Assembly (NCBI GenBank): GCA_015056255.1
Contig: SVGP01000023.1
Location: 1 to 24,000 of the forward strand
DNA: 24,000 bases
Reading direction: 5' to 3'
DNA from: Clostridiales bacterium
GTDB taxonomy: Bacteria; Bacillota; Clostridia; Christensenellales; Aristaeellaceae
Shown: piece by piece, positions 7,843 through 23,742 of the stretch
Position numbering within the stretch: the first letter of the stretch is position 1
How the letters are laid out: each line of letters starts with the position of its first letter
Notes under the pieces: model-generated
What the model saw: only the letters and a program-made list of their open reading frames with translations
What the model was told of the DNA's origin: nothing
Databases searched by the model: none
Made by a program: the position numbers and the translations under genes

Positions 7843-8376
7843 TTACAGCTCGTATCCAAGCGAAATCGCTTTTTTATTAAGCTCAATCAGGTTCTGTCTC
7901 TTTGCGGAAACGACCTTCTGGATGGTTTTGTCGATGGCTTCTACCGGGAACATGCTTGTTTCCTTGAGCATTTTGCCCATGATGATCATGTTTGCCAAGG
8001 TCGCCATGCCCTCTTCGCCCGCAATTTTGGTGGCGGGGATGCCGAAGGCCTTTACGTCTTCGCGCTTGACCTCGCGGTCAATCAGTGAGGAATCGTAGAA
8101 GATCATGCCGCCGGGCGTGACCGCGTCTTCAAACTTATCGAGCGAGGGAAGGTTCATCGCGATCAGCACGTCCGGATTCGGAACGAGGGGCGAGCCGATG
8201 GGGGTATCCGAAATGATGACGGAGCAGGAAGCCGTGCCGCCGCGCATTTCGGGGCCGTAGGAGGGAAGCCATGTGACTTCCTTGTTTTCAAGAAGGCCCT
8301 CATAGGCCAAGAATTTTCCGGTAAACAGAACGCCCTGTCCGCCGAAGCCGGAGATTAAGATATTCACTTGTTTCAT
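7843..8376 (-). CDS. 2-oxoacid:ferredoxin oxidoreductase, gamma subunit (VOR/KOR family)
   Basis: [19 protein letters not shown]...[16 protein letters not shown] is the characteristic gamma-subunit signature. A 4-nt ATGA overlap with the beta subunit indicates translational coupling. Confidence 0.9.
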
Positions 8377-9125
8377 TTTCCGGCCTCCTCCGCGTACTTA
8401 TCCTTGTAAACGCCTAAAGGATAATACGGCATCATGTTTTCCTCCAGCCACTTAAGCGCCTTATCGGGCGTAAGACCCCAATTGGTGGGGCAGGTAGAAA
8501 GAACCTCGATCAGGGAAAAGCCCTTGCCCTCAAGCTGATACCGGAAGGCCTTTTTGATGGCGCGGGCGGCGTTTTTAACGTTCTTGACGTCGTTTACAGC
8601 AACGCGCTCAAGGTAAGCAGCGCCGGTAACATTGCTTAAAAGCTCGCAGACCTTTACAGGATAGCCGACGGATTCAACCTGTCTTCCATAAGGAGAGGTC
8701 TGGGTGACCTGTCCGGGCAGCGTGGTCGGGGCCATCTGACCGCCAGTCATGCCGTAAATGGCGTTGTTTACGAAGATAACGGTGATGTTTTCGCCTCTGG
8801 CTGCGCTGTGCACGGTTTCTGCAGTGCCGATGGCGGCAAGGTCGCCATCACCCTGATAGGTGAAGACGATGTTATTGGGATCAGCGCGCTTTACGCCGGT
8901 GGCGACTGCGGGCGCGCGGCCATGAGCGGCCTGAACCATGTCGCAGTTGAAATAATTATAGGCAAATACAGAGCAGCCGACGGGGGCCACGCCGATGGTT
9001 CTGCCTTCGATGCCCAGTTCGTCAATGGCCTCGGCAACCAGGCGATGAATGATGCCGTGGGTGCAGCCGGGGCAATAGTGAAGTTTTACATCCGCAAGCG
9101 CTTTCGGCTTTTCAAATACGATCAT
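8373..9125 (-). CDS. 2-oxoacid:ferredoxin oxidoreductase, beta subunit (TPP-binding)
   Basis: YCPGCTHG Cys motif and GDGD...AIG...N TPP/Mg-binding block (YQGDGDLAAIGTAETVHSAARGENITVIFVNNAIYGMTGGQ). Confidence 0.92.
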   Translation of the reverse strand: MIVFEKPKALADVKLHYCPGCTHGIIHRLVAEAIDELGIEGRTIGVAPVGCSVFAYNYFNCDMVQAAHGRAPAVATGVKRADPNNIVFTYQGDGDLAAIGTAETVHSAARGENITVIFVNNAIYGMTGGQMAPTTLPGQVTQTSPYGRQVESVGYPVKVCELLSNVTGAAYLERVAVNDVKNVKNAARAIKKAFRYQLEGKGFSLIEVLSTCPTNWGLTPDKALKWLEENMMPYYPLGVYKDKYAEEAGK

Positions 9126-10196
9126 TTACTTATCGCCTCCATTCTTGGCTGCTGCTTCTTCAATGGACTGAAGTACCTGTTCGGGAGTGGGGATCATGCC
9201 GCCGGTACGGGAGCAGAGGGTCACGGGGCGCGAGCAGCGGATGGCAAGCTCGACATCCTCAATCATCTGGCCCATGTTAAGCTCGACCGAAATAAACGCC
9301 TTTGCGGTCTTGGCCTTTTCGAAAAGAACCTTCTTCGGGAACGGCCAAAGGGTGATCGGGCGGATCATACCGGCCTTGATGCCCTTTTCGCGCGCAGCGA
9401 CGATGGCGTTTCTGGCAACACGGGCAGCCACGCCGAAGGCGACGACCACGATGTCCGCGTCATCCGCCATGAATTCTTCGTACATCGCTTCGTTTTCTTC
9501 GATTTCCTTGTACATGGCATATCTTTTGATATTCCACTGCTCAAGCTCTTCCGGAAGCAGCGACAGGGAGTTTACGATGTTGTGGGTTCTTTCTCCCTTG
9601 GTGCCGGTGACCGCCCAGGGCTTATCGTACGCCTTGACTTCGCCCATGTCGAGGGAAACCGGCTCCATCATCTGACCCATAGTGCCGTCAGCAAGGATCA
9701 TGGTGGTCATGCGGTATTTGTCGGCAAGGTCAAAGCCCTTGAACACCAGGCTCGCCATTTCCTGAACGGATGCGGGCGCGAGCACCAGCATTCTGAAGTC
9801 GCCGTGTCCTGCGCCGCGGGTGGCCTGAAAATAGTCGGACTGGCTGGGCTGAATGCCGCCAAGGCCGGGCCCGCCCCTCTGTACGTTTACAATCAGCGCG
9901 GGAAGATCGCAGCCGGCCAAGTAGCTGATGCCTTCGCTTTTTAAGGAAATTCCGGGGCTGGAGGAGGAGGTCATAACGCGCTTGCCGGCGGAGGCAACGC
10001 CGATGACCATATTGATGGCGGCGACTTCGCTTTCCGCCTGAAGGAAGGTTCCGCCGATCTGGGGCATGCGCTTGGCCAGATACGCCGCAACCTCCGTCTG
10101 AGGCGTGATGGGATAGCCGAAATAATGGCGGCAGCCGGCCATGATGGCGGCTTCAGCCAGGGCTTCGTTGCCCTTCATAAGCACTTTATCTGCCAT
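9126..10196 (-). CDS. 2-oxoacid:ferredoxin oxidoreductase, alpha subunit
   Basis: MKGNEALAEAAIMAGCRHYFGYPITPQTE is the conserved alpha N-terminus. Start set at ATG 10196 (MADKVLMKG). The longer ORF would overlap the delta gene. Confidence 0.9.
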   Translation of the reverse strand: MADKVLMKGNEALAEAAIMAGCRHYFGYPITPQTEVAAYLAKRMPQIGGTFLQAESEVAAINMVIGVASAGKRVMTSSSSPGISLKSEGISYLAGCDLPALIVNVQRGGPGLGGIQPSQSDYFQATRGAGHGDFRMLVLAPASVQEMASLVFKGFDLADKYRMTTMILADGTMGQMMEPVSLDMGEVKAYDKPWAVTGTKGERTHNIVNSLSLLPEELEQWNIKRYAMYKEIEENEAMYEEFMADDADIVVVAFGVAARVARNAIVAAREKGIKAGMIRPITLWPFPKKVLFEKAKTAKAFISVELNMGQMIEDVELAIRCSRPVTLCSRTGGMIPTPEQVLQSIEEAAAKNGGDK

Positions 10197-10207
10197 AATC
10201 TTGTTTC

Positions 10208-10414
10208 CTACCTTTCCACAGTGATCACGCAGTCCGGGCACATGGTGGCGCAGAAAGCGCAGCCGATGCACTTTTCAGGTTCCGTGACCTTTGCCGGGTG
10301 ATGTCCCTGCTGGTTTAATTTCGTTTCGTCGAGCGCGACGATTTTCTTGGGGCATGCGCCCACGCAAAGGCCGCAGCCCTTGCATCTTTCCTCGCGGAAC
10401 GTTACTTTTGCCAT
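10208..10414 (-). CDS. 2-oxoacid:ferredoxin oxidoreductase, delta subunit (2x[4Fe-4S] ferredoxin)
   Basis: Two CxxCxxCxxxCP motifs: CKGCGLCVGACP and CIGCAFCATMCP. 68 aa. GGAGGAA ribosome-binding site. Confidence 0.9.
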   Translation of the reverse strand: MAKVTFREERCKGCGLCVGACPKKIVALDETKLNQQGHHPAKVTEPEKCIGCAFCATMCPDCVITVER

Positions 10415-10432: not shown

Positions 10433-11101
10433 TCAATAGATCGCCCATTCGTCGCGGAAATGGAGCCGGATGGGCATGGGATGAACCACTTTGCCTTTGA
10501 TTTCGTTTATCAAATCCTCGCGGACGGTCGTGCCCAGAAGCGGAAGATTTGTTTTTTCGGAAACCTCTCTTGCAAGCGCGTCCGTTTCTGCGATATCCGA
10601 AACCGCAGTCATTTGTCCGAGATTGGAATTGTTGAGAAGGGCCGTAACTTTCATGCCGGAAGCGGTTTCCACTTCCCGAAGCACGCTGATCAATTGATCC
10701 GCCGTCCTCGTAAGCGGACGATAGAAGTTCATCACGAACACCATTTCGTAATCGTCCTCCGCCATTAAGGAAGGCGCGAGCCGTCCAAGCGCAAGCGCGC
10801 CTCTGTCGTCACCGCCAACGTCCACAACCGCGTGCGTTTGCTTGTCGTCGATGATCCTGTACATCTCTTCGGGCAGCGCGGGCACGTCCACATTGGTGTT
10901 TGCGTAGCTTGAAACCACGATTTCCACGCCCGCATCCTTCAGCGCCTTTTCGCTGTCTCTCGTTCTGAAATACGGGTTAACGATGTCAAGATCCGCTATC
11001 AGCGTTTTAAGGCCTTCTTTTTTGAGTCCCAGCGCGTAATTGACCGCGATATTGGTTTTGCCGCTTCCGTAGTGGCCTGAAAAAAGCGTTACTCTTTTCA
11101 C
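10433..11101 (-). CDS. P-loop NTPase of unknown function (MinD/ParA/CooC-like SIMIBI fold)
   Basis: The Walker A-like motif is FSGHYGSGKTNIAVNYA, followed by LIADLDIVNP and VVDVGGDDRG (Walker B-like). The GTG start abuts the ilvE stop (TAAGTG). No closer family is recognisable by eye. Confidence 0.7.
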   Translation of the reverse strand: MKRVTLFSGHYGSGKTNIAVNYALGLKKEGLKTLIADLDIVNPYFRTRDSEKALKDAGVEIVVSSYANTNVDVPALPEEMYRIIDDKQTHAVVDVGGDDRGALALGRLAPSLMAEDDYEMVFVMNFYRPLTRTADQLISVLREVETASGMKVTALLNNSNLGQMTAVSDIAETDALAREVSEKTNLPLLGTTVREDLINEIKGKVVHPMPIRLHFRDEWAIY

Positions 11102-12166
11102 TTATATTTTCTCCGTCCAGCCGAATGCGTCTTCCTTCTTGCCCCACTGGATGCCGGTGAGCTCGTCATACAGCTTCTGGGTGAGCTCGCCGATGTTCCC
11201 GCCGTTTACGACATAAGGAACGTCGTCCACGGACAATTCGCCGATGGGAGACACGACAGCCGCCGTTCCGCAGCCAAACGCCTCTTCAAGCGCGCCCGTT
11301 TTAACCGCCTCGGCCAATTCGTCCACGGAAAGGAGCCTTTCCTCTACCGGGACGCCCCACTTTTCAAGAAGCGCGATACAGCTTCTTCTGGTGATGCCGG
11401 GAAGAACGGATCCTGTGAGCTTCGGGGTAACGACGGTTCCGTTAATTTTGAACATGACGTTCATGGAGCCGACCTCTTCGACATATTTGCGCTCTACGCC
11501 GTCCAGCCACAGAACCTGGGCAAAGCCTTTCTTTTCGGCCTTTTCGCCGGCGCGCATGGAGGCTGCGTAGTTGCCGCCGCACTTGGCATAGCCGGTGCCG
11601 CCGCGAACCGCGCGAACGTCCTCGGTTTCGATCATAATACGGACGGGGTTTACGCCTTCCTTATAATAAGAACCGGAAGGCGAAAGAATGATGATGAAGG
11701 TGGCGTTGTTTACAGTGTGAACGCCCAGGAACGGGTCGTTTCCGAACAGGAAGGGGCGGATATAAAGGGACGCGCCTTCCGCGGAAGGAACCCAGTCGCG
11801 GTCGATATCGATCAGGGTTTTTAAAGCCTTTAAGCAGAATTCGCCGTCGATTCTGGGAAGGCAGAGGCGGTCGGCGGAATCGTTCATGCGGTCAAAGTTG
11901 TCCATGGGGCGGAACAGCTGAATTTCGCCGTCCGGACGGCGGTAGGCCTTCATGCCCTCGAAAATCTCCGCGCCGTAGTGAAGCACGGTAGACGCAGGCG
12001 AGATGGAAATGTTGCCGTAGGGAACGATTCTTGCGTCGTGCCAGCCGTTTTCGCGGTCAAACTCCATCACAAACATGTGATCAGTAAAAACTTTTCCAAA
12101 GCCCAGTTTGCTTGCGTCGGCGGGCTTTACTTTGGGATTCATATTTTTTTCAATACGGATTTCCAT
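11102..12166 (-). CDS. ilvE: Branched-chain amino acid aminotransferase (class IV PLP enzyme)
   Basis: LGFGKVFTDHMF, HYGAEIFEGMKAYR, GTGYAKCGGNYAAS, PGITRRS and GTAAVVSPIG blocks are typical of long-form IlvE. Confidence 0.93.
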   Translation of the reverse strand: MEIRIEKNMNPKVKPADASKLGFGKVFTDHMFVMEFDRENGWHDARIVPYGNISISPASTVLHYGAEIFEGMKAYRRPDGEIQLFRPMDNFDRMNDSADRLCLPRIDGEFCLKALKTLIDIDRDWVPSAEGASLYIRPFLFGNDPFLGVHTVNNATFIIILSPSGSYYKEGVNPVRIMIETEDVRAVRGGTGYAKCGGNYAASMRAGEKAEKKGFAQVLWLDGVERKYVEEVGSMNVMFKINGTVVTPKLTGSVLPGITRRSCIALLEKWGVPVEERLLSVDELAEAVKTGALEEAFGCGTAAVVSPIGELSVDDVPYVVNGGNIGELTQKLYDELTGIQWGKKEDAFGWTEKI

Positions 12167-12215: not shown

Positions 12216-14729
12216 TTATTGATTTGAAAGGCCAAATATTTCCGCAGCTTTTTCGCGCATCTTGTATTTTTGAATTTTGCCTGCGTCGTTCATGATGAAT
12301 TTGTCTACAAACCACACGTACTTGGGCACCTTGTGGCGAGCCATATTGGCGCGGACATAAGCCTTTACGTCCTCTTCCGTCATTTCCTCGCCCTCGCGGA
12401 CAATGACGCAGGCCATAATTTCTTCGCCGTACTGCTTATCGGGAACGCCGATGACCTGAACGTCGGAAATTTTGTCATGCGTAATTAGGAATTCCTCAAT
12501 CTCGCGCGGATAAATGTTTTCGCCGCCTCTGATGATCATGTCCTTGAGTCTGCCCGTCACGCGGTAGTTTCCGTCCTTGTCGCGGATGCAAAGGTCGCCG
12601 GTGTGCAGCCACCCTTCCCTGTCGATGGCTTCGTATGTTGCGGAGGGCATTTTGTAGTAGCCCTTCATGATGTTGTAGCCTCTGGCTACGAATTCGCCCT
12701 GCTCGCCGTCGGGCAGCTCCTTTCCGGTTGCGGGATCGATGATCCTGCATTCGATTTCGGGAAGCGCGCAGCCCACGGTCTGGGTGCGAACGTCCAGAGA
12801 ATCCTCATAGCATCTGCTCATCGTGCAGCCGGGCGCGGCCTCCGTCTGACCATAGACGGATACGATGCCGGTCATGTTCATGCGCTTGGCCGCTTCCCGC
12901 ATGACGCTTTCGGGGCAGTTTGCGCCGGCCATGATGCCGGTTCGCATGTGGGAAAAATCGGTCTTTTCAAAGTCCGGATGCGAAAGCATGGCGATAAACA
13001 TCGTGGGAACGCCATTAAAGCAGGTGATTTTTTCGCGGTTCACGCAGTCCAGCGCGGGCTTGGGCGAAAAGTACGGAAGCGGGCACATGGTGCTTCCGTG
13101 CGTCATGGACGCAGTCATGGAAAGTACCATGCCGAAGCAGTGGAACATGGGCACCTGGATCATCATGCGGTCAGCGGTGGAAAGATCCATTCGGTCGCCG
13201 ATGCATTTTCCGTTGTTGACAACTCCCCTGTGCGTGAGCATGACGCCCTTGGGAAAGCCGGTGGTGCCGGAGGTATACTGCATGTTGGCAACGTCGTCGC
13301 CCTTGATTTCGCTTGCGCGCCTGTATACTTCCTCCAGAGGAACCATGGGCGCACGGTCCATCATTTCATCAAACGTTAAGCATCCTTCCATTTTAAAGCC
13401 GACTGTAACGACGTTTCTTAAGAATGGAAGCCTTTGGGCGTGCAGTGGCTGGCCGGGCTCGGTGTGTTCAAGCTCCGGGCAAAGGCGTTTGATGGTGTCT
13501 ACATAGTTGGAATCGCGGAAGCCGTCCACCATGATAAGCGTGTGGGTATCGGACTGACGCAAAAGGTATTCCGCCTCGGCAATTTTGTAGGCGGTGTTCA
13601 TGGTGACGAGCGTCGCGCCGATTTTTGTAGTCGCCCAGAAGGCGATGTACCACGCGGGCACGTTGGTTGCCCACACGGTTACGTGGCTGTCTCGCTTGAC
13701 GCCCAGAGAAATGAGCGCACGGGCGCAGGCGTCCACATCGTCCCTAAACTGGGAATAGGTGCGCGTGTAGTCGAGGGTGGTGTATTTAAAGCACAATTGA
13801 TCCGGGAATTCCTTGACCATTCTGTCCAGCACCTGCGGGAAAGTCATGTCGATCAAGCTGTCGTGCTTCCAGACATATTTTCCGGTGCCCGCTTTATTGA
13901 GATACAATCCCTGCTCCCATGCGGGCGCGGGCTCAAAGTTTTTGACAAAGGAGGCAAAGTGCGCATACACTACGCCCGGGTCGTCCACTTCCTTAAGCCA
14001 CTCGGGATCCCATTCGAGGGAATAAAAGCCGTCGTAGCTGACGCTTCTTAACGCGCCGAAGATTTCCTTCATCGGAAGCGTGCCTTCGCCGAGCAGGCAG
14101 TATTCTGATTTTCCATCCTTAACGACCGAATCCTTCAGGTGCACATGCTTTACATATGCGCCGAGATTGGTGATCGTCTTTTCGGGCTTTTCGCCCATCA
14201 GGCGGTATGGATGGTGCACATCCCACAAAGCCGCCAGATGATCGCAGGCAAATTCATTTAAAATGCCGACCAGGCGCGAAGTATCGGCAAATATGCCGCA
14301 GGTTTCAATAAGCAAGGTAACGTCCGCCTTTTCAGCAAGCGGCAGAACTTTTTTAACCAGTTCCTTTACGTTTTCGTTTTCCTTTTCCTCGCCCTCGCCT
14401 GTTGAAAGCGCGCGCAGGCGTACAAAGGGAGCGTTTACCTTATCTGCAAAGGCGATGAGGTTTTTAATTTCCTCAGCTCTTTTGCCGTCTTCATCGTTTT
14501 CTGCGGGGTTCATGCGCGCATCAAGGCAGGTGATCGTGAGCCCCAGCGCTTTTAAGGATCGAACGGTGTGGTCGATTTCACCCTTTTGAAACGGCGCGCC
14601 AACGCCCGTAAACCGGCTTTCGCCGATATCGTGAATCTCGATGCCGTCAAGGCGCATTTCCCTTGCCACCGACACAAAATCGGCAAAGGAAAAGCTGTTC
14701 CAGCCGTAGGTGGATACGGAAAGCTTCAT
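12216..14729 (-). CDS. Fusion protein with an N-terminal xylose-isomerase-like TIM barrel (sugar phosphate isomerase/epimerase family) and a C-terminal AMP-forming acyl-CoA ligase
   Basis: Residues 1 to about 265 show TIM-barrel features (LDGIEIH, LLIETC, HLKD, SLEW). From about residue 290 the sequence is FadD-like, with YTSGTTGFPKGVMLTH (A3/P-loop), GQTE, WLHTGDL, RLKDMIIRGGENIYPREIE and a C-terminal GKIQK lysine motif. It overlaps the upstream gene by 4 nt (ATGA). Confidence 0.85.
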   Translation of the reverse strand: MKLSVSTYGWNSFSFADFVSVAREMRLDGIEIHDIGESRFTGVGAPFQKGEIDHTVRSLKALGLTITCLDARMNPAENDEDGKRAEEIKNLIAFADKVNAPFVRLRALSTGEGEEKENENVKELVKKVLPLAEKADVTLLIETCGIFADTSRLVGILNEFACDHLAALWDVHHPYRLMGEKPEKTITNLGAYVKHVHLKDSVVKDGKSEYCLLGEGTLPMKEIFGALRSVSYDGFYSLEWDPEWLKEVDDPGVVYAHFASFVKNFEPAPAWEQGLYLNKAGTGKYVWKHDSLIDMTFPQVLDRMVKEFPDQLCFKYTTLDYTRTYSQFRDDVDACARALISLGVKRDSHVTVWATNVPAWYIAFWATTKIGATLVTMNTAYKIAEAEYLLRQSDTHTLIMVDGFRDSNYVDTIKRLCPELEHTEPGQPLHAQRLPFLRNVVTVGFKMEGCLTFDEMMDRAPMVPLEEVYRRASEIKGDDVANMQYTSGTTGFPKGVMLTHRGVVNNGKCIGDRMDLSTADRMMIQVPMFHCFGMVLSMTASMTHGSTMCPLPYFSPKPALDCVNREKITCFNGVPTMFIAMLSHPDFEKTDFSHMRTGIMAGANCPESVMREAAKRMNMTGIVSVYGQTEAAPGCTMSRCYEDSLDVRTQTVGCALPEIECRIIDPATGKELPDGEQGEFVARGYNIMKGYYKMPSATYEAIDREGWLHTGDLCIRDKDGNYRVTGRLKDMIIRGGENIYPREIEEFLITHDKISDVQVIGVPDKQYGEEIMACVIVREGEEMTEEDVKAYVRANMARHKVPKYVWFVDKFIMNDAGKIQKYKMREKAAEIFGLSNQ

Positions 14730-16120: not shown

Positions 16121-16162
16121 ATTCATATCTCCTTTGGCTCAATATGCGCTTGAATCAATGTT

Positions 16163-16467: not shown

Positions 16468-16496
16468 ACTATACCATTTCAAGCGCAATTTGTCAA
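16468..16496 (-). promoter_or_regulatory. Sigma-A promoter of T-box unit 1
   Basis: TTGACA (16496-16491), a 17-nt spacer ending in TGG (extended -10), then TATAGT (16473-16468). Confidence 0.7.
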
Positions 16497-16554: not shown

Positions 16555-18876
16555 TTAGAGCTTGTTTCTCTGAATCTTGCCGCTTGTGGTCTTGGGCAAT
16601 TCATCACGGAAGACGACAATGCGCGGATATTTATAAGGCGCGGTCTTCTTCTTGACGTAATTCTGGATTTCCTTTTTAAGTTCCTCCGTAGGCTCCGTTC
16701 CCTTGGTAAGGACGATGCTCGCCTTGACCACCTGACCGCGGATTTCATCCGGCGCAGCGGATACGCCGCACTCAATAACATAGGGAAGCTCCATAATGAC
16801 GGATTCGATTTCAAACGGCCCGATTCGGTAACCGGAGGACTTGATCACGTCGTCCACGCGGCCCACATACCAGAAGTAGCCGTCTTCGTCCATCCACGCG
16901 GTATCGCCCGTGTGGTACATGCCATCGGAAACATCCAGAACCGGCTTTTTGAGCGTATTATCGTAGTATCCGCGCGTAAGGCCGCAGGGCAGGCCGTCTT
17001 CCACATGGATGACGATTTCGCCCGTTTCGCCGACGCCCACGCTCTTGCCCTCCGGATTTACAATGTCCACATCGTACAGCGGCACGGGTTTTCCCATGGA
17101 ACCGACCTTGGGCGTCATGCCGACGGTGTTTCCGATCATCATAGTGGTTTCCGACTGGCCGAAGCCCTCCATGAGGGATAAGCCCGTGGCCTTCTTGAAC
17201 TGGTGGAACACCTCGGGGTTCAGGGCCTCGCCCGCGATGGTCGCATGCTTGATGGAGGAAAGATCGAACTTCGAAAGATCCTCCTTGATCATGAAGCGAT
17301 ACATGGTGGGCGGCGCGCAGAAGGTGGTGATGTTGTATTTTTTGAACATCGGAAGGATATCGTTGGCGTCGAAGCGATCAAAGTCGTATACGAAAATCGC
17401 GCCTTCGCTCAGCCACTGACCGTAGAGCTTGCCCCACATGCTCTTGGCCCAGCCGGTGTCGGAAATGGTGTAGTGAAGGCCGTTGGGGTCGACGGTATGC
17501 CAGTAGTGGGCGGTAATGAAGTGGCCCAGCGGGTAGGTATATGTGTGGGATGCGATCTTGGGATAGCCGGTTGTTCCGCTGGTAAAGAACATGAGCATAA
17601 GGTCCTCGCCCTCGGGGCGTTTTTCGCCTTCCGGCACGGTGAGGGTAGATCTGAACATGCGGTATTCCGTGTCAAAGCTTCTCCAGCCATCGCGTTCGCC
17701 CTCAACCACGATGCGGTTACCAACAAACGGACACTCCTCAAGCGCAAGCTCCGCCTGATTGATGCAGTCGCCGACGCCGGTCACGATGACGGTGGAGACG
17801 CCGGCGGCAGTAAATCTGTAGGAAAGATCCTTTTTCAGAAGCTGGTTGGGTGCGAGGATTGCGATTGCGCCGATTTTCTGAAGCGCCATCATGATGATCC
17901 AGAACTGATAATGACGGCGGAGCATCAGAAGCACCTTGTCGCCCTTTTTGACGCCGATGGATCTGAAGTAGTTGGCGGCGCGGTTGGAAAGGCGCGAAAT
18001 ATCGGCAAAGGTGAAGCGGTTTTCCACGCCGTCGCGCGAAATGTGCATCATGGCCAGCTTTTCAGGGTTGTTCTTACCCAGCTCGTCCACAATGTCAAAG
18101 GCAAAGTTGAACTTTTCAGGATTTTTGAAGGAAATGGCTTTCAAAGAGCCATCGGGATTTTCAACCGCGTCCACCCACTTCGACCAGATGTGCTCGCCCT
18201 CGGGCGCAGTATGCACGGGCGCGGGCGCAATTTCGACCTTGGGAAGGGTCATCATGGGCTCTTTGACGGTGAGCTCCGGAATCGCATCGCCCGACGGATT
18301 TAAAACAATCGCGTAAAACAGGCAGTTTTCGCCGCCCACCGCGATCATGCCGTGGGGCTTGGAGGAGTCGTAATAGATGCTGTCGCCGGGGCCCAGAATC
18401 TCCCAGTGCGTTCCGACCTGCACCTTGAGCTTACCGGAAATAACGATATCGCATTCCTGGCCCTCGTGGCTGGTCAGTTCAATGTCCTGATACTGCGCCT
18501 CCTCGGAATAGGCGGCGTTTACGTACAAAGGCTCAGCGATTCGGTTTTTGAACTGCGCAGCGAGGTTATAGTACACCATGCCGTGCGCCTGCTCTATCCT
18601 CTGCCCCATGCCGTTTCTGGTTACGGTGTAGCCGGAAAGACGGGGGCTCGCGCCCTCGATAATATCGGTAACGTCAACATTCAAAACCAGCGCGCAGCGG
18701 TAAATAAAGGCGAAGTTCAGATCCGCCTTGCCCGCCTCGCAAAGTCTGTATTCCTCAATCGTAACGCCCGTCTTTTTGGCCATGCTCTCTTCGGAAATAC
18801 CCTCGATTTCACGAAGCTCCTTAATACGGCCTGCCATCTCCTGAAGCTTGAATTCCAGACCCGTCGTCTGATTCAT
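16555..18876 (-). CDS. HTH(XRE)-cupin-acyl-CoA synthetase fusion (AMP-forming, medium/short-chain ACS-like), paralog A
   Basis: Residues 12-72 form a Cro/C1-type HTH (RIKELREIEGISEESMAKKTGVTIEEYRLCEAGK). Residues around 105-195 form a cupin (SHEGQECDIVISGKLKVQVG...GDSIYYDSSKPHG). The remainder is an AMP-binding enzyme (FTSGTTGYPKIASHT, GFGQSETT, YHTGDTA, DDVIKSSGYRIGPFEIES, SGKIQRN). Start at ATG 18876, with AAAGGGGG 9 nt upstream. Confidence 0.9.
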   Translation of the reverse strand: MNQTTGLEFKLQEMAGRIKELREIEGISEESMAKKTGVTIEEYRLCEAGKADLNFAFIYRCALVLNVDVTDIIEGASPRLSGYTVTRNGMGQRIEQAHGMVYYNLAAQFKNRIAEPLYVNAAYSEEAQYQDIELTSHEGQECDIVISGKLKVQVGTHWEILGPGDSIYYDSSKPHGMIAVGGENCLFYAIVLNPSGDAIPELTVKEPMMTLPKVEIAPAPVHTAPEGEHIWSKWVDAVENPDGSLKAISFKNPEKFNFAFDIVDELGKNNPEKLAMMHISRDGVENRFTFADISRLSNRAANYFRSIGVKKGDKVLLMLRRHYQFWIIMMALQKIGAIAILAPNQLLKKDLSYRFTAAGVSTVIVTGVGDCINQAELALEECPFVGNRIVVEGERDGWRSFDTEYRMFRSTLTVPEGEKRPEGEDLMLMFFTSGTTGYPKIASHTYTYPLGHFITAHYWHTVDPNGLHYTISDTGWAKSMWGKLYGQWLSEGAIFVYDFDRFDANDILPMFKKYNITTFCAPPTMYRFMIKEDLSKFDLSSIKHATIAGEALNPEVFHQFKKATGLSLMEGFGQSETTMMIGNTVGMTPKVGSMGKPVPLYDVDIVNPEGKSVGVGETGEIVIHVEDGLPCGLTRGYYDNTLKKPVLDVSDGMYHTGDTAWMDEDGYFWYVGRVDDVIKSSGYRIGPFEIESVIMELPYVIECGVSAAPDEIRGQVVKASIVLTKGTEPTEELKKEIQNYVKKKTAPYKYPRIVVFRDELPKTTSGKIQRNKL

Positions 18877-18895
18877 GAATAAAAGCCCCCTTTCA

Positions 18896-19192
18896 GTCAA
18901 AAAAATCCGCCTCAAAGAAACATATCGTCTTTGAGGCGAATGAAAAAATCTTTCACACGCGGTACCACTCAAATTCACGCATTTTGAAAATGCGCCTCAC
19001 GGCTCCATCAAGCCGTTCTCCCTTTTCGCAGGCTCACGGGAGGCTCTACTGATTTCGGTCACCCGAAACGTTCTGCCGTCCGGCTCGGAAGCGACAAATT
19101 CTGCCTTCTCGTTACCGGCTCGCACCAAGCGCCGGCTCTCTGAAACGATTTTCCGTCAGAATCCTCTTCGTCATCGCCAATGATATGAAATT
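18896..19192 (-). promoter_or_regulatory. T-box riboswitch leader 2 (inferred specifier GUC, Val)
   Basis: The minus-strand RNA has a K-turn (GGCGAUGAC GAAG ... CUUC CGAGCC) and an AG bulge plus distal loop (AGAGAGCCGGCGCUUGGUGCGAGCCGG). The T-box sequence AAUUUGAGUGGUACCGCG lies at 18975-18958. The antiterminator is UUGAG[UGGUACC]GCG...CGC-CUCAA. The terminator is CGCCUCAAAGA, 9 nt, UCUUUGAGGCG, then GAUUUUUUU (18938-18896). The codon at the canonical position is GUC (19095-19093), followed by G. Confidence 0.88.
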
Positions 19193-19198
19193 AGAGAT

Positions 19199-19227
19199 AT
19201 GATACCACGAAGGGCGGAATCTGTCAA
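19199..19227 (-). promoter_or_regulatory. Sigma-A promoter of T-box unit 2
   Basis: TTGACA (19227-19222), a 17-nt spacer ending in TGG, then TATCAT (19204-19199), preceded by a T-rich UP-like tract. Confidence 0.7.
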
Positions 19228-19275
19228 TGAAAAAAACAGAAATCCTCACCGAACATGCAAATTTTCCTGCATTGC

Positions 19276-19304
19276 TTGATATGACATCAAAAAACTGTTA
19301 TACT
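19276..19304 (+). promoter_or_regulatory. Probable promoter of the DUF4160/DUF2442 pair
   Basis: TTGATA (19276-19281), a 17-nt spacer ending in TGT, then TATACT (19299-19304). Confidence 0.5.
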
Positions 19305-19327
19305 AAAAATATAAGGAGGCGATGTGC

Positions 19328-19594
19328 ATGCCAGAACTAAGCAGGTTTGCCGGAATCATTGTCAAAATGATTTTCAACGATACCGTTCAACATAATAAAC
19401 CCCACGTTCACGTATATTACGGTGAATATCAGGCCTCCATCGGCATTGATGGCGAATTATTGGCAGGTTCACTGCCTGTAAAGCAGCTAAAAATGGTTGT
19501 TGGATGGCTGGCACTTCACGAAGAAGAGGCCTATGCTGCATGGAATAAGGCTGTACGCGGCGAACGCTTCGACAAGATCAAACCCCTGATTTAA
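19328..19594 (+). CDS. DUF4160-family small protein
   Basis: MPELSRFAGIIVKMIFND..HNKPHVHVYYGEYQASIGIDGELLAGSLP matches the DUF4160 pattern (MP.ISRF.GI.I.MY..DH.PPHFH). Start taken at ATG 19328, 8 nt after AAGGAGG. Confidence 0.8.
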   Translation: MPELSRFAGIIVKMIFNDTVQHNKPHVHVYYGEYQASIGIDGELLAGSLPVKQLKMVVGWLALHEEEAYAAWNKAVRGERFDKIKPLI

Positions 19595-19890: not shown

Positions 19891-19902
19891 AGAATATATC
19901 AA

Positions 19903-19940
19903 GGCAGCGCACGGCCTGTGCGCTGCCTGACTTTTCTATT
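19903..19940 (+). terminator. Intrinsic terminator after the DUF2442 gene
   Basis: GGCAGCGCAC, a 5-nt loop, GTGCGCTGCC, then TGACTTTTCTATTT. It may also serve the convergent minus-strand gene. Confidence 0.7.
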
Positions 19941-19984
19941 TGCAAGAATTGTAATTACGGAAGATTCCTCTATATTTTTCTCCC

Positions 19985-20995
19985 TCATTCCCCAAAGAAC
20001 ACTCTGGGCGTATTGATGATACAAAATGCAATAACATCCTTATAGCGTTTGGTTTTCCCTGTTTCCAATGATACACAGTATGCATCCGCGCCGTATAAGG
20101 CGCGCATCCTAAAATAAACAAGTTCCTTTCCGGCTTTCGATACGGCGATACCCGTTTCCGGCTCCAGCAAGGACAAAGTAATCGTTTTCCCTTTTCTTGT
20201 CTTATAGTCTTCAATTGTATTTTCCTGAACGGAATACATTTTGAGAACTCCGTCTTTGTCAATAAACAAAAGCGTATCGTCATTCAGCCATGCGGGCGCT
20301 TCCCCTTCGCCGATATCTCTGACATTTCCGTCTGAATCGATTATAACAATCCTGTCAGGCAGGATAATATACGGGAATGCAAAGGAATCCTTGGTTTCAT
20401 CAAGGATTGTTTCGTAATAGCTGAATGCAATCCTGCCGCTTGACGAAACCGTATTTGAAGTCGTGTAAGTGTATCCGCGATTATCCGCCGGCGAAACAGC
20501 CCCATTTAACATCGCCCATTCCGGCGGGCAAAAACACATCTGGTAATCAACATGCGGATAAACGAATGTATCTCCGTTTTTGTTTAAGCGAACATACTCG
20601 CAGCAATATTCCTTGTTTTCCGCCAATCGGCAATAGTAGTAATCATCTCCATGCGCCGCAAATACATGCAGAAGGTTCGGATCCTTTATGATGCAGTCCG
20701 TTTGGATGTTTCCGTCTTCATGGACAGTGAGGATTTCCGTTTCACCGATCTCAATATGTTCACGCGCAGCACGCACACCCACTTCTTCAGTAAAGCCCTC
20801 AATCAGATAAAAATCCGCAGGACATACATCCTCGGCATGCTTTTTCGAAAGATCCTGTTTTCTGAACAACTGCGGATGATCGTCATCATCATACTCCACA
20901 AAGAAAACAGTACCGGATATCCCTGACGCAGCACACGCAGGGAACATTGAAGTAAAAATCACCATGATCAAAAGCAGGCAGAATTTCTTTTTCAT
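19985..20995 (-). CDS. Secreted Cys-rich hypothetical protein
   Basis: Signal peptide MKKKFCLLLIMVIFTSMFPACA with an A-x-A cleavage site. GGAGGAA ribosome-binding site. The C-terminal half has beta-propeller-like repeats (IIDSDGNVRDIG, LFIDKDGVLKMY). No recognisable enzyme motifs. Confidence 0.7.
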   Translation of the reverse strand: MKKKFCLLLIMVIFTSMFPACAASGISGTVFFVEYDDDDHPQLFRKQDLSKKHAEDVCPADFYLIEGFTEEVGVRAAREHIEIGETEILTVHEDGNIQTDCIIKDPNLLHVFAAHGDDYYYCRLAENKEYCCEYVRLNKNGDTFVYPHVDYQMCFCPPEWAMLNGAVSPADNRGYTYTTSNTVSSSGRIAFSYYETILDETKDSFAFPYIILPDRIVIIDSDGNVRDIGEGEAPAWLNDDTLLFIDKDGVLKMYSVQENTIEDYKTRKGKTITLSLLEPETGIAVSKAGKELVYFRMRALYGADAYCVSLETGKTKRYKDVIAFCIINTPRVFFGE

Positions 20996-21073: not shown

Positions 21074-21108
21074 ATAAAATACCGCCGCAGGGCAATTCCT
21101 GCGGCGGC
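21074..21108 (-). terminator. Intrinsic terminator after the unit-3 ligase gene
   Basis: The minus-strand RNA reads CCGCCGCAGG, a 6-nt loop, CCUGCGGCGG, then UAUUUUAUAU, starting 6 nt after the stop. Confidence 0.75.
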
Positions 21109-21113
21109 ATTCT

Positions 21114-23390
21114 TTACAGAAGATTCCTCTGGATCTTTCCGCTGATGGTTTTGGGAAGCTCATCCTTGAAGACGACGATTCTCGGATACTTGTAGGGCGC
21201 GGTTTTGTGCTTTACGTATTCCTGAATTTCCTTTTTGAGTTCCTCGGTGGGTTCGGTGCCCTTGGTTAAGACGATGCTCGCCTTGACCACCTGGCCGCGG
21301 ATCTCGTCGGGGGCTGCGGAAACGCCGCACTCGAGGACGTAGGGAAGCTCCATGATGACGGATTCGATTTCAAACGGCCCAATGCGGTAGCCGGAGGACT
21401 TGATCAGATCGTCCACGCGGCCTACATACCAGAAGTAGCCGTCTTCGTCCTTCCATGCGGTATCGCCGGTGTGGTACATGCCGTCCGAAAGGTCGATTTC
21501 AGGAACGCCCTTTTCGTTGTTGTAATAGCCGAGAGTAAGACCCATCGGGGGCTTGCCGTCCTTAAGGCGCACGACGATTTCGCCGGTTTCGCCCTGCTGG
21601 ACGCTGTTGCCGTCGTGATCGACGATGTCGATGTCGTAATTGGGAACGGGCTTGCCCATGGAGCCGACCTTCGGGCGCATACCGACGAGATTGGCGATGG
21701 TAAGGGTGGTTTCGGTCTGACCGAAGCCTTCCATAAGGGAGATGCCCGTGGCTTTTCTGAACTGATAGAAGACCTCGGGGTTCAAAGCTTCGCCTGCGAT
21801 GGTGGCATGCTCAATGGAAGAAAGATCGTATTTGGAAAGATCTTCCTTGATCATGAAGCGATACATGGTGGGCGGCGCGCAGAAGGTTGTGATGTGATAC
21901 TTTTTGAACATCGGCAGAATGACAGAGGCGTCGAAGCGGTCAAAGTCGTATACGAACGTCGCCGCCTCGCACATCCACTGGCCGTAAAGCTTGCCCCACA
22001 GCGCCTTGCCCCAGCCGGTGTCGGAGATAGTGAAGTGAAGGCCATCTGGGTTGACGTTGTGCCAATATTTGGCGGTAGCAAAATGCGCAAGCACGTATTT
22101 ACAGGAGTGAGTTGCGATCTTGGGATAGCCCGTCGTTCCGCTTGTAAAGAGCATGAGCATGGGATCGTCGCCCTTGATGGAATCCTCCGTTCTCGGGAAG
22201 GTGGAGGAGAACATGCGGGCTTCGGTGTCAAAGTCGCGCCAGCCCTCGCGAACGCCGTCGACGATGATTCTGTGTTTTAAAGTCGGGCTGTCCTTAAGCG
22301 CCTTGTCTACTTCTTCTGCAACCTTTCCCGTGCCCGTACAGATGATAGCGGAAACGCCGGCGGCATTGAAGCGGTAGGTAAGGTCGTGTTCGACCAGAAG
22401 GTTGGTTGCGGGGATGACGATTGCACCCAGCTTATGAAGCGCAAGAATGGCCTGCCAGAACTGATAATGGCGGCGCAGAATCAGCATGACTCTGTCGCCC
22501 TTTTTGATGCCGAGGGATTTAAAATAGTTGGCAACGCGGGAGGAAGAGCGGGAAAGCTCGCGGAAAGTGAACTTTCTTTCCTCCATATTGCGGCTTACGT
22601 GAACCATTGCAACCTTATCGGGCTTCTTTTCGGCGATGGCGTCCACGATATCGAAGGCAAAGTTGAACTCGTCCGCGTTTTTGTATTTGATCTCCTTGAC
22701 AAGGCCGTTTTCGTCCTCAACGCCCTCGACGAATTTTTCATAAATTCTGCCCTCAGTGCGCTTGGCGGCGACGATGGTGTCCCTGATTTCGAGCTCCTCC
22801 GTCTCCTCGCCCGGCAGTACCACCGCGCAGAAATAGCAGTCCTGACCTTCCACCGCGATCATGCCGTGGGGCGTTGAGGAGTCGTAATAGATGCTGTCGC
22901 CTTCATGCAGGATCTCGGTATGCTCGCCCACCTGCACCTTCAGTGCGCCGGACATGATCAGGTCAAATTCCTGACCGCTGTGGCGGGTCAGATGGATGGG
23001 GCTTTTCTGCTGCTCGGGCGAATATTCGTATTTTACAAAATAAGGCTCGGCAATCTTCTTTTTGAAAAGCGGCGCAAGGGACCTGATTTCAAGGCCTACT
23101 TCGCGCGCGGTAACCGTGCCCTGGCCTTTTCTGGTAACGGTGTACTGGGTCAGGCGCGCGGATTTACCTTCCATAAGGTCGGTGATTTCAACGCCCAGTT
23201 CCAGCGCGCATTTGTGGATGAAGCTGAAGGGGAAGTCCAGCTGGCCGTCCTCGTACTGCACATACATTTCGAGGCTCACTTCCGTGCGCTCGGCCATTTC
23301 CTCCCTTGAAAAACCAGCGATTTCACGCAGCTCACGAATTCGGGCCGCCACCTCGAAGATTTTATTGGTCGCGTTGTTTGTCGCCTGCAT
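21114..23390 (-). CDS. HTH(XRE)-cupin-acyl-CoA synthetase fusion, paralog B
   Basis: Same three-domain layout as 16555-18876: RIRELREIAGFSREEMAERTEVSLEMYVQYEDGQ, then RHSGQEFDLIMSGALKVQVG...GDSIYYDSSTPHG, then FTSGTTGYPKIATHS...SGKIQRN. The C-terminal 90 aa are nearly identical to paralog A. Start at ATG 23390, with GGAGGG upstream. Confidence 0.9.
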   Translation of the reverse strand: MQATNNATNKIFEVAARIRELREIAGFSREEMAERTEVSLEMYVQYEDGQLDFPFSFIHKCALELGVEITDLMEGKSARLTQYTVTRKGQGTVTAREVGLEIRSLAPLFKKKIAEPYFVKYEYSPEQQKSPIHLTRHSGQEFDLIMSGALKVQVGEHTEILHEGDSIYYDSSTPHGMIAVEGQDCYFCAVVLPGEETEELEIRDTIVAAKRTEGRIYEKFVEGVEDENGLVKEIKYKNADEFNFAFDIVDAIAEKKPDKVAMVHVSRNMEERKFTFRELSRSSSRVANYFKSLGIKKGDRVMLILRRHYQFWQAILALHKLGAIVIPATNLLVEHDLTYRFNAAGVSAIICTGTGKVAEEVDKALKDSPTLKHRIIVDGVREGWRDFDTEARMFSSTFPRTEDSIKGDDPMLMLFTSGTTGYPKIATHSCKYVLAHFATAKYWHNVNPDGLHFTISDTGWGKALWGKLYGQWMCEAATFVYDFDRFDASVILPMFKKYHITTFCAPPTMYRFMIKEDLSKYDLSSIEHATIAGEALNPEVFYQFRKATGISLMEGFGQTETTLTIANLVGMRPKVGSMGKPVPNYDIDIVDHDGNSVQQGETGEIVVRLKDGKPPMGLTLGYYNNEKGVPEIDLSDGMYHTGDTAWKDEDGYFWYVGRVDDLIKSSGYRIGPFEIESVIMELPYVLECGVSAAPDEIRGQVVKASIVLTKGTEPTEELKKEIQEYVKHKTAPYKYPRIVVFKDELPKTISGKIQRNLL

Positions 23391-23417
23391 GAAAATCCCT
23401 CCTTTGAAATGAATTTT

Positions 23418-23707
23418 GAAAATAAAAAAACGCCCCAAAGAAACCACTGTTTCTTTGAGACGAAAATCACTTTATAGATTTCCGCGGTACCACTCAAATT
23501 GCGTTTGTCAAAAACGCCCCTTAACAGGCTCCATCAAGCCCTGCGCCTGTAACGCTGCGCCAGCGGGAAGAGACTACTGGAAAAATTTCATCCTTCCGGC
23601 TCGGGAGTGATGGGCACATTGACCATATGCTTTCGCCGGCTTTCACCAAGCGCCGGCTCTCTGTGGAAATGCATTTTGATCTGCCGTCTCCGTCATTGCT
23701 TTTCTTG
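23418..23707 (-). promoter_or_regulatory. T-box riboswitch leader 3 (inferred specifier AUC, Ile)
   Basis: The minus-strand RNA has a K-turn (AGCAAUGAC GGAG ... CUCC CGAGCC) and an AG bulge plus distal loop (AGAGAGCCGGCGCUUGGUGAAAGCCGGCG). The T-box sequence AAUUUGAGUGGUACCGCG lies at 23500-23483. The terminator is CGUCUCAAAGAAAC, 4 nt, GUUUCUUUGGGGCG, then a U7 run (23462-23418). The codon at the canonical position is AUC (23611-23609), followed by A. Confidence 0.88.
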
Positions 23708-23713
23708 GAAGAT

Positions 23714-23742
23714 ATATTACCACCGATCGCCACGTTTGTCAA
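23714..23742 (-). promoter_or_regulatory. Sigma-A promoter of T-box unit 3
   Basis: TTGACA (23742-23737), a 17-nt spacer ending in TGG, then TAATAT (23719-23714), with an A/T-rich UP-like tract upstream. Confidence 0.7.

Follow-up and report, generated by a model that had tools for sequence, protein, structure and literature searches.

A candidate tRNA-gated gene cluster for salvage of branched-chain carboxylic acids into branched-chain amino acids in a gut Clostridia bacterium

Why would three acyl-CoA ligase genes of a gut Clostridia bacterium each lie behind a T-box leader, and each behind a leader with the codon of a different amino acid? The cluster in question spans positions 7843-23742 of the window (the whole stretch of 24,000 nucleotides analysed), an extent that the sequence-only reading had given accurately, and all of its units are on the minus strand. 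Three leaders, each composed of a promoter, a T-box and a terminator, stand upstream of one AMP-forming CoA ligase gene apiece. T-boxes switch genes on when the cognate tRNA is uncharged, and AMP-forming ligases are in effect irreversible; starvation gating and irreversible ligases together argue for a route from acid to acyl-CoA to 2-oxoacid to amino acid. The cluster is probably, in our judgement, a three-branch, tRNA-gated salvage system that turns exogenous branched-chain carboxylic acids into branched-chain amino acids (BCAAs). Rumen organisms are known to make isoleucine and leucine from 2-methylbutyrate and isovalerate (PMC10658910), and the gene set is most likely the long-sought basis for Ile, Val and Leu synthesis from branched short-chain fatty acids in rumen and gut anaerobes. 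The genes and regulation of the reductive carboxylation route in gut Firmicutes are unassigned in the literature found, and the literature searched holds no description of a T-box regulon of this kind.

The leaders were searched for with the Rfam covariance model RF00230, whose gathering score is 93 bits. Leader 3, of the Ile unit (23453..23705, minus strand), scores 102.2 bits (E 7.6e-22), and leader 1, of the Leu unit (16194..16452, minus strand), scores 101.8 bits (E 9.5e-22). Leader 2, of the Val unit (18929..19183, minus strand), is below the gathering score at 75.4 bits (E 1.8e-16), yet it covers the full length of the model and has conserved orthologues; its low score was counted against the salvage interpretation. 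The three promoters share the pattern TTGACA-17-TGnTAnnnT, starting at 23742, 19227 and 16496, and are, on the minus strand, TTGACA-17-TAATAT for the Ile unit (23714..23742), TTGACA-17-TATCAT for the Val unit (19199..19227) and TTGACA-17-TATAGT for the Leu unit (16468..16496), each with a TG extension. GC-rich hairpins followed by U tracts terminate leader 3 (23462..23431, minus strand, overlapping the 3' end of the leader) and leader 1 (16203..16176, minus strand). The terminator of leader 2 (18899..18938, minus strand), an 11-bp stem (cgcctcaaaga/tctttgaggcg) with a U tract, whose hairpin occupies 18938..18908, was missed by the hairpin scan that gave the other two and was read by eye. A further hairpin (21082..21107, minus strand), with an 11-bp stem containing nine GC pairs and, on the minus strand, a T-rich tail, closes the single-gene Ile unit; the scan had listed it for the plus strand. 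These positions bear out the earlier claim of three minus-strand promoter/T-box/terminator leaders.

The alignments contain the Stem I elements of a T-box, namely the K-turn halves GC..UGA/GAGC, AGAGAG and UUGGUG. All three leaders have the conserved T-box sequence in the form GGGUGGUACCGCG or GAGUGGUACCGCG, and the terminator hairpins with their U tracts overlap the 3' arm. With their scores (leaders 3 and 1), Stem I with K-turn, specifier loop, AG bulge and distal loop, and a UGGN bulge with a competing terminator, the leaders belong by sequence to the T-box class. The specifiers lie in all three leaders immediately 5' of the 4-bp helix above the K-turn. Read from the alignment columns of the covariance model, a check named beforehand, they are AUC (Ile) in leader 3, GUC (Val) in leader 2 and CUC (Leu) in leader 1, the same codons that had been picked out by inspection; non-BCAA codons are absent. 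The residue after the specifier is A in leader 3, G in leader 2 and C in leader 1, so that the usual purine after the codon is absent from leader 1, as it is from some orthologous leaders. The bulge reads UGGU in all three alignments, again as first proposed, and is complementary to the A73 and following CCA of one tRNA-Leu, from the relative L041.

What is directly observed comprises the leaders and specifiers, the families of the genes and a conserved association of codon with gene, which extends well beyond the window. Of 80 species-level genomes from Oscillospirales and related orders, about 60 have the gene set, and the relatives are overwhelmingly metagenome-assembled genomes from ruminant and other animal guts. 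Leaders before the clade of the Ile-unit ligase (LigI) carry ATC in 68 of 69 confident calls, those before the clade of the Val-unit ligase (LigV) carry GTA or GTC in 38 of 39, and those before the LeuA-like/TIM-ligase pair of the Leu unit carry CTC or CTG in all 18. Synonymous changes of codon (GUA/GUC; CUC/CUG) are seen inside the ligase groups, and five orthologous leaders aligned to the covariance model confirmed the specifier readings. The claim that each ligase is tied to the codon of one amino acid therefore holds across relatives by this clade-codon link. The genes for the oxidoreductase and the aminotransferase (the VOR/IlvE block) are always downstream of some BCAA T-box and adjoin a ligase, and in at least 37 genomes block and ligase share one transcription unit behind such a T-box. 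The block is behind the Leu T-box in the window, as the sequence-only reading had it, but this placement is confined to the window's lineage; 27 relatives have it after the Val T-box and 10 after the Ile T-box. In each genome the block is under a single T-box of the three, and this too was counted against salvage.

LigI (21114..23390, minus strand) and LigV (16555..18876, minus strand) are paralogues with 63% identity; in each, a single polypeptide joins an XRE-type HTH and a cupin domain to an AMP-forming acyl-CoA ligase resembling Macs and MbcS (Pfam). Matches to the AMP-binding and AMP-binding_C domains of the ANL-superfamily fold have E values of 8e-70 and 1e-20 for LigI, and of 3e-58 and 2e-21 for LigV. 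The two form separate clades, with no nearest-neighbour mismatch among 119. MbcS is the best NCBIfam family for both (443 and 426 bits), and its cut-off of 850 is not reached, which makes the two proteins relatives, not equivalogs; the distance from the equivalog cut-off was entered against the salvage route. MacsMa, the Macs of M. acetivorans (PDB 3ETC), is nearer than MbcS to both proteins, each of which is 53% identical to it (LigI over the ligase domain, with E 8e-184). The MacsMa pocket residue Trp259 is conserved as W443 of LigI. Eight positions separate the LigI and LigV clades, seven of them inside the HTH-cupin module; the sole one in the ligase domain adjoins the DTGW motif and is Gly461 in LigI, as in MacsMa, and Ala in LigV. 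The preferred substrate of MacsMa is 2-methylbutyrate (PMC10455477), and MbcS of S. aureus takes 2-methylbutyrate and isobutyrate with Km values of 5-10 uM, isovalerate being a poor substrate (PMC10026030, PMC13584741); both enzymes prefer alpha-branched short acids. By these homologies LigI is predicted to be a 2-methylbutyrate-CoA ligase and LigV an isobutyrate-CoA ligase. Unlike MacsMa and MbcS, LigI and LigV begin with an HTH-cupin module some 215 aa long and lie behind Ile and Val T-boxes.

The kinship with MbcS raises another use for the ligases, namely that they serve mostly to turn exogenous acids into branched acyl-CoA primers for the synthesis of branched-chain fatty acids and not into amino acids, with the benefit that scarce BCAAs are spared from breakdown into lipid primers. 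MbcS, the best family match of both proteins, has this documented role in S. aureus, notably under limitation of Ile, Leu and Val (PMC10026030, PMC13584741), and LigI is alone in its unit with its own terminator. Feeding lipid synthesis, as MbcS does, would differ from the role predicted for LigI and LigV. In the window and 37 relatives, however, a BCAA T-box precedes a ligase that is co-transcribed with IlvE and the oxidoreductase genes (VorDABG), and under starvation IlvE and the oxidoreductase would be of use in the synthetic direction only, because the oxidative direction would consume the limiting amino acid. We consider primer supply an unlikely main function. Primer supply and amino acid salvage could also coexist.

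A different start for the Ile branch has LigI making propionyl-CoA, which the oxidoreductase would convert to 2-oxobutyrate and IlvBCD then to isoleucine; the branch would then do no more than bypass threonine deaminase or citramalate in part. Some anaerobes are known to reach isoleucine by reductive carboxylation of propionyl-CoA, which was counted in favour of this start. Propionate is also among the C3 to C8 acids that MacsMa adenylates, but the productive CoA step of that enzyme is with its preferred 2-methylbutyrate (PMC10455477). The glycine after DTGW in LigI and MacsMa, against the bulkier alanine in LigV, is the reverse of the pattern expected if LigI took a smaller, C3 substrate. In addition, ilvBCD genes do not recur near the cluster in the 80 loci, and no shortcut of this sort exists for the Val and Leu branches. 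A propionate start therefore seems very unlikely, and 2-methylbutyrate remains the predicted substrate of LigI.

The Leu unit uses a ligase of another kind. Its TIM-ligase (12216..14729, minus strand) combines a degenerate xylose-isomerase-like TIM domain, in which the metal ligands are not conserved, with a FadD/PRK12583-like AMP-forming acyl-CoA ligase (Pfam, NCBIfam and PDB comparisons). It is predicted to be an isovalerate-CoA ligase, and the poor use of isovalerate by MbcS fits, by analogy, with the Leu unit having another ligase family. Among homologues of the TIM-ligase in the PDB comparison, none is known to use isovalerate, which was weighed against salvage. The sequence-only reading was right that all three ligases are AMP-forming (Pfam, NCBIfam), one after each leader; as a correction to it, they fall into two different families. 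Immediately before the TIM-ligase is the gene for a LeuA-like protein (14726..16126, minus strand), an HMGL-like barrel that lacks the catalytic motifs and retains the LeuA allosteric (dimerisation) domain (Pfam). Every NCBIfam LeuA model is under its cut-off (best 281 versus 532 bits), and in an alignment to PDB 3RMJ the H-x-H metal ligands are replaced by K-T-G. The motifs RDGxQ, HxH, HSSGIHQDG and GERAGN, for which an E. coli LeuA sequence was the reference, are missing from the window protein and from 30 orthologues. An active 2-isopropylmalate synthase was considered for this gene and rejected: the catalytic motifs are gone, the models are below cut-off and only the LeuA_dimer domain is intact.

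Downstream in the same unit are, all on the minus strand, the branched-chain aminotransferase IlvE (11102..12166; NCBIfam PRK13357, 483 bits for a cut-off of 307, and TIGR01123, 400 for one of 250), a P-loop NTPase (10433..11101) and four subunits of a 2-oxoacid:ferredoxin oxidoreductase. The latter are delta (10208..10414), which is 2x[4Fe-4S] ferredoxin-like with two Cys clusters; alpha (9126..10196), of VorB type (Pfam POR_N and PFOR_II; NCBIfam PRK07119 VorB, 531.5 bits where the cut-off is 399); beta (8373..9125), the TPP-binding subunit (Pfam TPP_enzyme_C, NCBIfam); and gamma (7843..8376; Pfam POR, NCBIfam). IlvE and the delta-alpha-beta-gamma enzyme had been named in the first reading, and the IlvE and VorB models, both above cut-off, uphold this. 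Beta, gamma and delta match generic OFOR models only, below cut-off; a four-subunit OFOR with its alpha above the VorB cut-off qualifies as a VOR by sequence, and activity on branched 2-oxoacids is predicted. Methanogens have an anabolic 2-oxoisovalerate:ferredoxin oxidoreductase (VOR), which the cluster enzyme resembles in its VorB-type alpha, its delta/alpha/beta/gamma make-up and its TPP-binding and 2x[4Fe-4S] subunits; in contrast, the cluster enzyme is bacterial, shares its T-box operons with a ligase and IlvE, and has a dedicated P-loop NTPase gene always immediately 5' of its delta gene. This NTPase is of the SIMIBI class and cysteine-free, and its AF2 model (pLDDT 86) resembles SRP-GTPase and ATPase-type HypB folds in Foldseek.

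VOR-type enzymes are reversible and are catabolic in peptide fermenters, so IlvE and VOR might instead degrade BCAAs to acyl-CoAs, with the ligases running in reverse or acting on unrelated acids. T-box gating, however, turns the genes on under amino acid scarcity, and AMP-forming ligases in reverse conserve no energy. Moreover, no genes for an ADP-forming acyl-CoA synthetase or for phosphotransacylase/kinase recur in the cluster neighbourhood, and such oxidative fermentation appears highly improbable. The earlier interpretation as salvage is, at the level of sequence, supported by the recurrence of the cluster, the codon-ligase linkage and the branched-chain carboxylate ligases homologous to LigI and LigV.

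For salvage we infer which acids are used, that carboxylation is the working direction and what the accessory parts do, as follows. Uncharged tRNA-Ile, -Val or -Leu would pair with the AUC, GUC or CUC specifier of the matching leader and, through its free NCCA end, with that leader's UGGU bulge, stabilising the antiterminator so that transcription reads on. The induced ligases would spend ATP to make branched acyl-CoAs, with LigI yielding 2-methylbutyryl-CoA, LigV isobutyryl-CoA and the TIM-ligase isovaleryl-CoA. The common VorDABG would convert these with reduced ferredoxin to 2-oxoacids by reductive carboxylation, from which IlvE would make Ile, Val and Leu by transamination. Product sensing at the first committed step may be the task of the dead LeuA and of the HTH-cupin domains, and the P-loop NTPase may be an oxidoreductase helper. 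Five conserved components have no role in a simple pathway, a point entered against salvage. A joint reading of these parts, in which each ligase has its own product sensor, amino-acid sensing is laid atop tRNA sensing and the SIMIBI NTPase is an obligatory oxidoreductase partner, is offered as a tentative and rather doubtful proposal. In the Ile and Val ligases the sensor would be a whole one-component regulator of HTH-cupin type, joined to the enzyme in one chain, and for the Leu ligase it would be a dead LeuA left with its leucine-binding allosteric domain alone and paired with the degenerate TIM domain; the NTPase might serve in maturation or even in nucleotide-assisted carboxylation. If true, free amino acid would be sensed in addition to tRNA charging, and the cluster, with two layers of control besides the T-boxes, would amount to more than salvage enzymes under regulation.

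T-boxes on BCAA supply are familiar in Firmicutes; examples are those of the B. subtilis ilv-leu operon (Leu, CUC), of ileS/valS/leuS and of BCAA transporters. The cluster leaders are like them in having Stem I with a K-turn, a specifier loop, a UGGN bulge and a terminator/antiterminator, in the CUC specifier for Leu and in the logic that uncharged tRNA raises the supply of the cognate amino acid. They differ in governing acyl-CoA ligases and a ferredoxin oxidoreductase instead of aminoacyl-tRNA synthetases, de novo ilv/leu genes or transporters, and in splitting one pathway among three amino-acid-specific leaders. Two T-box surveys (PMC2494555, PMC3766115) mention no ligases, ferredoxin or oxidoreductases. 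Tracer work on rumen bacteria and methanogens, as summarised in PMC10658910 and PMC7356843, follows isovalerate, isobutyrate and 2-methylbutyrate into Leu, Val and Ile; the proposed chemistry and the habitat of the cluster carriers agree with this classical route, which was defined by labelling.

The genes listed in the sequence-only reading all stand, but its inventory missed the dead LeuA homologue, the degenerate TIM domain, the HTH-cupin domains of two ligases, the P-loop NTPase and an amidohydrolase gene. The last, an Amidohydro_2 gene that is divergent from the Ile unit and encodes 263 aa on a fuller contig, has its 5' end in the window (23875..24000, plus strand). In at least 12 relatives this gene is located 3' of the TIM-ligase within the Leu unit.

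Three T-box leaders lie on the minus strand of the window. A whole-window Rfam scan returns the Ile leader (23705..23453, 102.2 bits) and the Leu leader (16452..16194, 101.8 bits), and a relaxed scan of 18700..19400 returns the Val leader (19183..18929, 75.4 bits, E 1.8e-16), which scores below the gathering score of 93 yet covers the full model length. Extended -10 promoters, with TTGACA, 17 nt, TG and then a TAnnnT hexamer, are located directly upstream of the Ile, Val and Leu leaders (23742, 19227 and 16496, respectively). Every leader ends in a GC-rich hairpin and U tract overlapping the 3' arm of the antiterminator, i.e., 23462..23431 (Ile), 16203..16176 (Leu) and, read off the sequence, 18938..18908 (Val), so that the Rfam matches, promoters and hairpins together bear out the three promoter/T-box/terminator leaders proposed from sequence alone. 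In the covariance-model alignments, the codon columns directly 5' of the 4-bp helix above the K-turn are AUC-A (Ile), GUC-G (Val) and CUC-C (Leu), and the T-box bulge is UGGU in all three leaders, the same codons and bulges as had been claimed. A tRNA-Leu from one relative carries an A73-CCA end, which is complementary to UGGU.

We note that the specifier loop of the Leu leader (16357-16372, minus strand; AAUCAUCUCC) contains two AUC (Ile) triplets directly 5' of CUC, and that the base following CUC is C, not a purine. When the Stem I regions of the three leaders are folded by minimum free energy (MFE), the result is uninformative (z-scores of -0.06, 0.18 and -0.79), and the register of the Leu leader shifts towards AUC; orthologues give no support to this shifted register, which was rejected. 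The double AUC is not seen in orthologous Leu leaders, and may be due to chance or may hint at dual reading. In the lineage of the window, this leader is the gate of the shared oxidoreductase and aminotransferase block.

The gene calls place an AMP-forming acyl-CoA ligase behind each leader, and the branched-chain aminotransferase IlvE and the oxidoreductase in the Leu unit, as expected from the sequence-only reading, which proved right wherever it could be checked. The genes of the three units are all on the minus strand. The Ile T-box precedes LigI (21114..23390), comprising an XRE helix-turn-helix (HTH), a cupin, an AMP-binding and an AMP-binding_C domain, and the unit is closed by a hairpin terminator (21107..21082). 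The Val T-box precedes LigV (16555..18876), which has the same domain architecture and is 63% identical to LigI. The Leu unit begins with a LeuA-like protein (14726..16126), followed by an 837-residue TIM-domain/AMP-ligase fusion (TIM-ligase, 12216..14729), IlvE (11102..12166, above the cut-offs of equivalog models), a P-loop NTPase annotated only as 'hypothetical protein' (10433..11101), and the delta (10208..10414), alpha (9126..10196), beta (8373..9125) and gamma (7843..8376) subunits of a four-subunit 2-oxoacid:ferredoxin oxidoreductase (VOR, or VorDABG), of which alpha matches NCBIfam VorB with 531.5 bits against a cut-off of 399. The remaining genes of the window are rpoA, rpsD, rpsK, rpsM, mnmA, a sulfatase and an LRR/DUF6273 surface protein, which places the locus on the chromosome. 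Between the Ile and Val units lies an unrelated insertion (19322-20995), absent in relatives, that holds a 336-residue lipoprotein-like open reading frame (19985..20995) with its own promoter and terminator and no Pfam match, and a DUF4160/DUF2442 gene pair on the opposite strand to it.

A profile search of species-representative genomes gave at least 571 pattern matches to LigI-type relatives. The best 80 of these are nearly all metagenome-assembled genomes, assigned to Acutalibacteraceae, Ruminococcaceae, Oscillospiraceae, Christensenellaceae and unclassified Clostridia, and were recovered from the guts of cattle, goats, sheep, yaks, deer, buffalo, chickens, mice and humans. Specifiers in the 80 loci were read by a script anchored on the K-turn and 4-bp helix, and compared with Rfam alignments; a custom Stem I covariance model was dropped, as MAFFT shifted the 3' strand by one base. 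Among the confident calls, those before LigI are 66 ATC, two spurious GCT and one exception; those before LigV are 34 GTA, 4 GTC and one miscall; and those before the LeuA-like gene are 14 CTC and 4 CTG. The two GCT (Ala) calls, in L030 and L032, are artefacts in which the script took a Stem II look-alike: direct reading of L030 gives ATC, and the identical script call implies ATC for L032. The codon columns in the Rfam alignments of five orthologous leaders likewise hold AUC, AUC, GUA, CUC and CUC. The loop around the specifier is not conserved and the codon varies only synonymously, a pattern that marks a genuine specifier. The ligases LigI and LigV separate cleanly into two clades, with no nearest-neighbour mismatch among 119. 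On the short contig L055, the T-boxes at positions 21 and 2704 both carry GTA (Val) and share the same Stem I 3' strand, one of them preceding a gene best matching LigI; either a recent duplication or a repeat in the assembly could account for the pair.

By tblastn of the window proteins, the same gene set is present in about 60 of the best 80 loci, in variable order. In the most common layout, LigI follows the Ile T-box; LigV, the P-loop NTPase, VorDABG and IlvE follow the Val T-box; and the LeuA-like gene and TIM-ligase follow the Leu T-box. Of the relatives, 27 carry the oxidoreductase block behind the Val T-box and 10 behind the Ile T-box, the latter mostly at loci without LigV; none has it behind the Leu T-box, which makes the arrangement of the window a rarer permutation. 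About ten genomes (L024, L037, L041, L042, L052, L069, L072, L074 and others) have no Val-linked ligase on the retrieved DNA, and their P-loop NTPase, VorDABG and IlvE genes are directly behind the Ile T-box and LigI, which suggests either a two-branch system or a LigI serving both alpha-branched acids. Tandem TPP riboswitch aptamers occur in L030 (807-915 and 962-1067), just downstream of an rRNA/tRNA cluster.

T-box leaders induce their genes in response to uncharged cognate tRNA, and the activation of acids by AMP-forming ligases is irreversible. Together with the co-transcription of a ligase with the oxidoreductase and IlvE, found in at least 37 genomes in addition to the window, these properties make a flow from acid to amino acid the only sensible one under starvation. 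The AMP-forming ligase would convert the branched-chain acid to its acyl-CoA, the oxidoreductase would carboxylate the acyl-CoA reductively to the 2-oxoacid with reduced ferredoxin, and the amino acid would be formed from the 2-oxoacid in the last step. The opposite direction, oxidative fermentation of branched-chain amino acids (BCAAs), is contradicted by the T-box logic and by the ligase type alike. Supply of primers for branched-chain lipids, the role of the S. aureus ligase MbcS, could coexist with tRNA-gated salvage of acids to BCAAs, but does not account for why VOR and IlvE belong to these starvation-induced operons. The general salvage reading is held with considerable confidence. The same route was established for rumen organisms by classical labelling, as PMC10658910 and PMC7356843 summarise. 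Under limitation for a single BCAA, branches that have no VOR and IlvE of their own might possibly be served by basal read-through, by the usual co-limitation of BCAAs, or by further genomic copies.

The ligase domain of LigI is 53% identical to M. acetivorans Macs (MacsMa, PDB 3ETC; E 8e-184), and the pocket residue Trp259 of MacsMa aligns with the invariant Trp443 of LigI. MacsMa prefers 2-methylbutyrate, the only substrate reported to be taken to the CoA ester, others being released or broken down at the adenylate (PMC10455477). MbcS is the top NCBIfam model for both LigI and LigV, each well under the equivalog cut-off; it is selective for 2-methylbutyrate and isobutyrate (Km 5-10 uM), uses isovalerate poorly, and has little or no activity on acetate (PMC10026030, PMC13584741). 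The TIM-ligase belongs to a distinct, FadD/PRK12583-like family. The preferences of MbcS would explain this otherwise puzzling division, with Macs/MbcS-type paralogues for the two alpha-branched acids (Ile and Val) and another family for the beta-branched acid (Leu). An Ile branch starting from propionate, via 2-oxobutyrate, is disfavoured, as the MacsMa-like pocket of LigI speaks against it and ilvBCD genes are not recurrent neighbours in the 80 loci. Eight fixed differences separate the LigI and LigV clades, seven of them within the HTH-cupin module and one in the ligase domain. This last position, which immediately follows the DTGW motif, is Gly461 in LigI (Gly also in MacsMa) and Ala in LigV, and lines the acyl pocket in the S. 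enterica Acs structure; a larger C5 acid would be expected to go with the smaller residue, which is a hint from sequence comparison. The specific assignment of 2-methylbutyrate to LigI, isobutyrate to LigV and isovalerate to the TIM-ligase is fairly probable, somewhat less so than the general salvage reading.

Many anaerobes of the rumen and gut have been known since the 1960s to require branched-chain volatile fatty acids, which are therefore added to feed. In line with the claim that a T-box regulon for this pathway is undescribed, full-text literature yielded no description of one, no paper in which acyl-CoA ligases, VOR or branched-chain volatile fatty acids are connected with T-boxes (a passing listing elsewhere is possible), and no paper assigning bacterial genes or regulation to the acid-to-amino-acid route; the genome-wide T-box surveys PMC2494555 and PMC3766115 are silent on such genes. 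Neither the riboswitch class nor the pathway chemistry is new in itself; the novelty lies in assigning genes to the pathway, in its division among three T-boxes that are each specific for one amino acid, and in the unusual domain fusions. The cluster provides a concrete and widely distributed candidate gene set for the route, and would improve predictions of auxotrophy and cross-feeding for uncultured Oscillospirales. The specifiers act as built-in substrate labels that predict which ligase serves which amino acid, and each step is therefore directly testable. Whereas known T-box regulons comprise synthetases, de novo pathways and transporters, those of the cluster would extend the reach of T-boxes to a ferredoxin-dependent salvage pathway.

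The earlier gene inventory stands as far as it went, but overlooked five components: the LeuA-like protein, the TIM domain, the HTH-cupin modules, the NTPase and an amidohydrolase-type gene. The LeuA-like gene, found in 31 species, always follows a Leu T-box and immediately precedes the TIM-ligase. Its product keeps the LeuA allosteric/dimerisation domain (Pfam E 1.5e-30), and the RDGxQ, HxH, HSSGIHQDG and GERAGN motifs are absent from the window protein and all 30 orthologues examined; judged by these motifs, it is a conserved pseudoenzyme, and may sense leucine. The N-terminal TIM domain of the TIM-ligase (13860-14729, minus strand; Pfam AP_endonuc_2, xylose-isomerase-like) is only remotely related to sugar epimerases, a class-level result of sequence and fold searches, and is probably non-catalytic, the Asp/His/Glu metal ligands of the family not being conserved in 28 orthologues. 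The N-terminal XRE-HTH and cupin modules of LigI (22746-23390) and LigV (18230-18876), both on the minus strand, each amount to a complete regulator, with the free-standing HTH_3/cupin regulator 1Y9Q as nearest solved structure. As a working idea, these three parts are putative product sensors on the committed, ATP-consuming step. The P-loop NTPase, directly upstream of the delta subunit in essentially every oxidoreductase-bearing locus, is cysteine-free and of the SIMIBI class, the searches by sequence and fold resolving it to class level; its AF2 model (pLDDT 86) best matches SRP GTPase domains and ATPase-type HypB (TM 0.5-0.6), and our working idea is a putative maturation factor for the oxidoreductase. 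Within 10 kb flanks of the 80 loci, no ilv/leu or transporter gene recurs, and the sole recurrent neighbour is an Amidohydro_2 (PF04909) gene. In the window, this gene (23875-24000, plus strand) is divergent from the Ile unit and extends beyond the window end; in at least 12 genomes (e.g., L061 8739-9587) it comes after the TIM-ligase; it is also present in L084 (8725-9516), and has the uncharacterised protein 3IRS and reversible decarboxylases as its nearest solved relatives.
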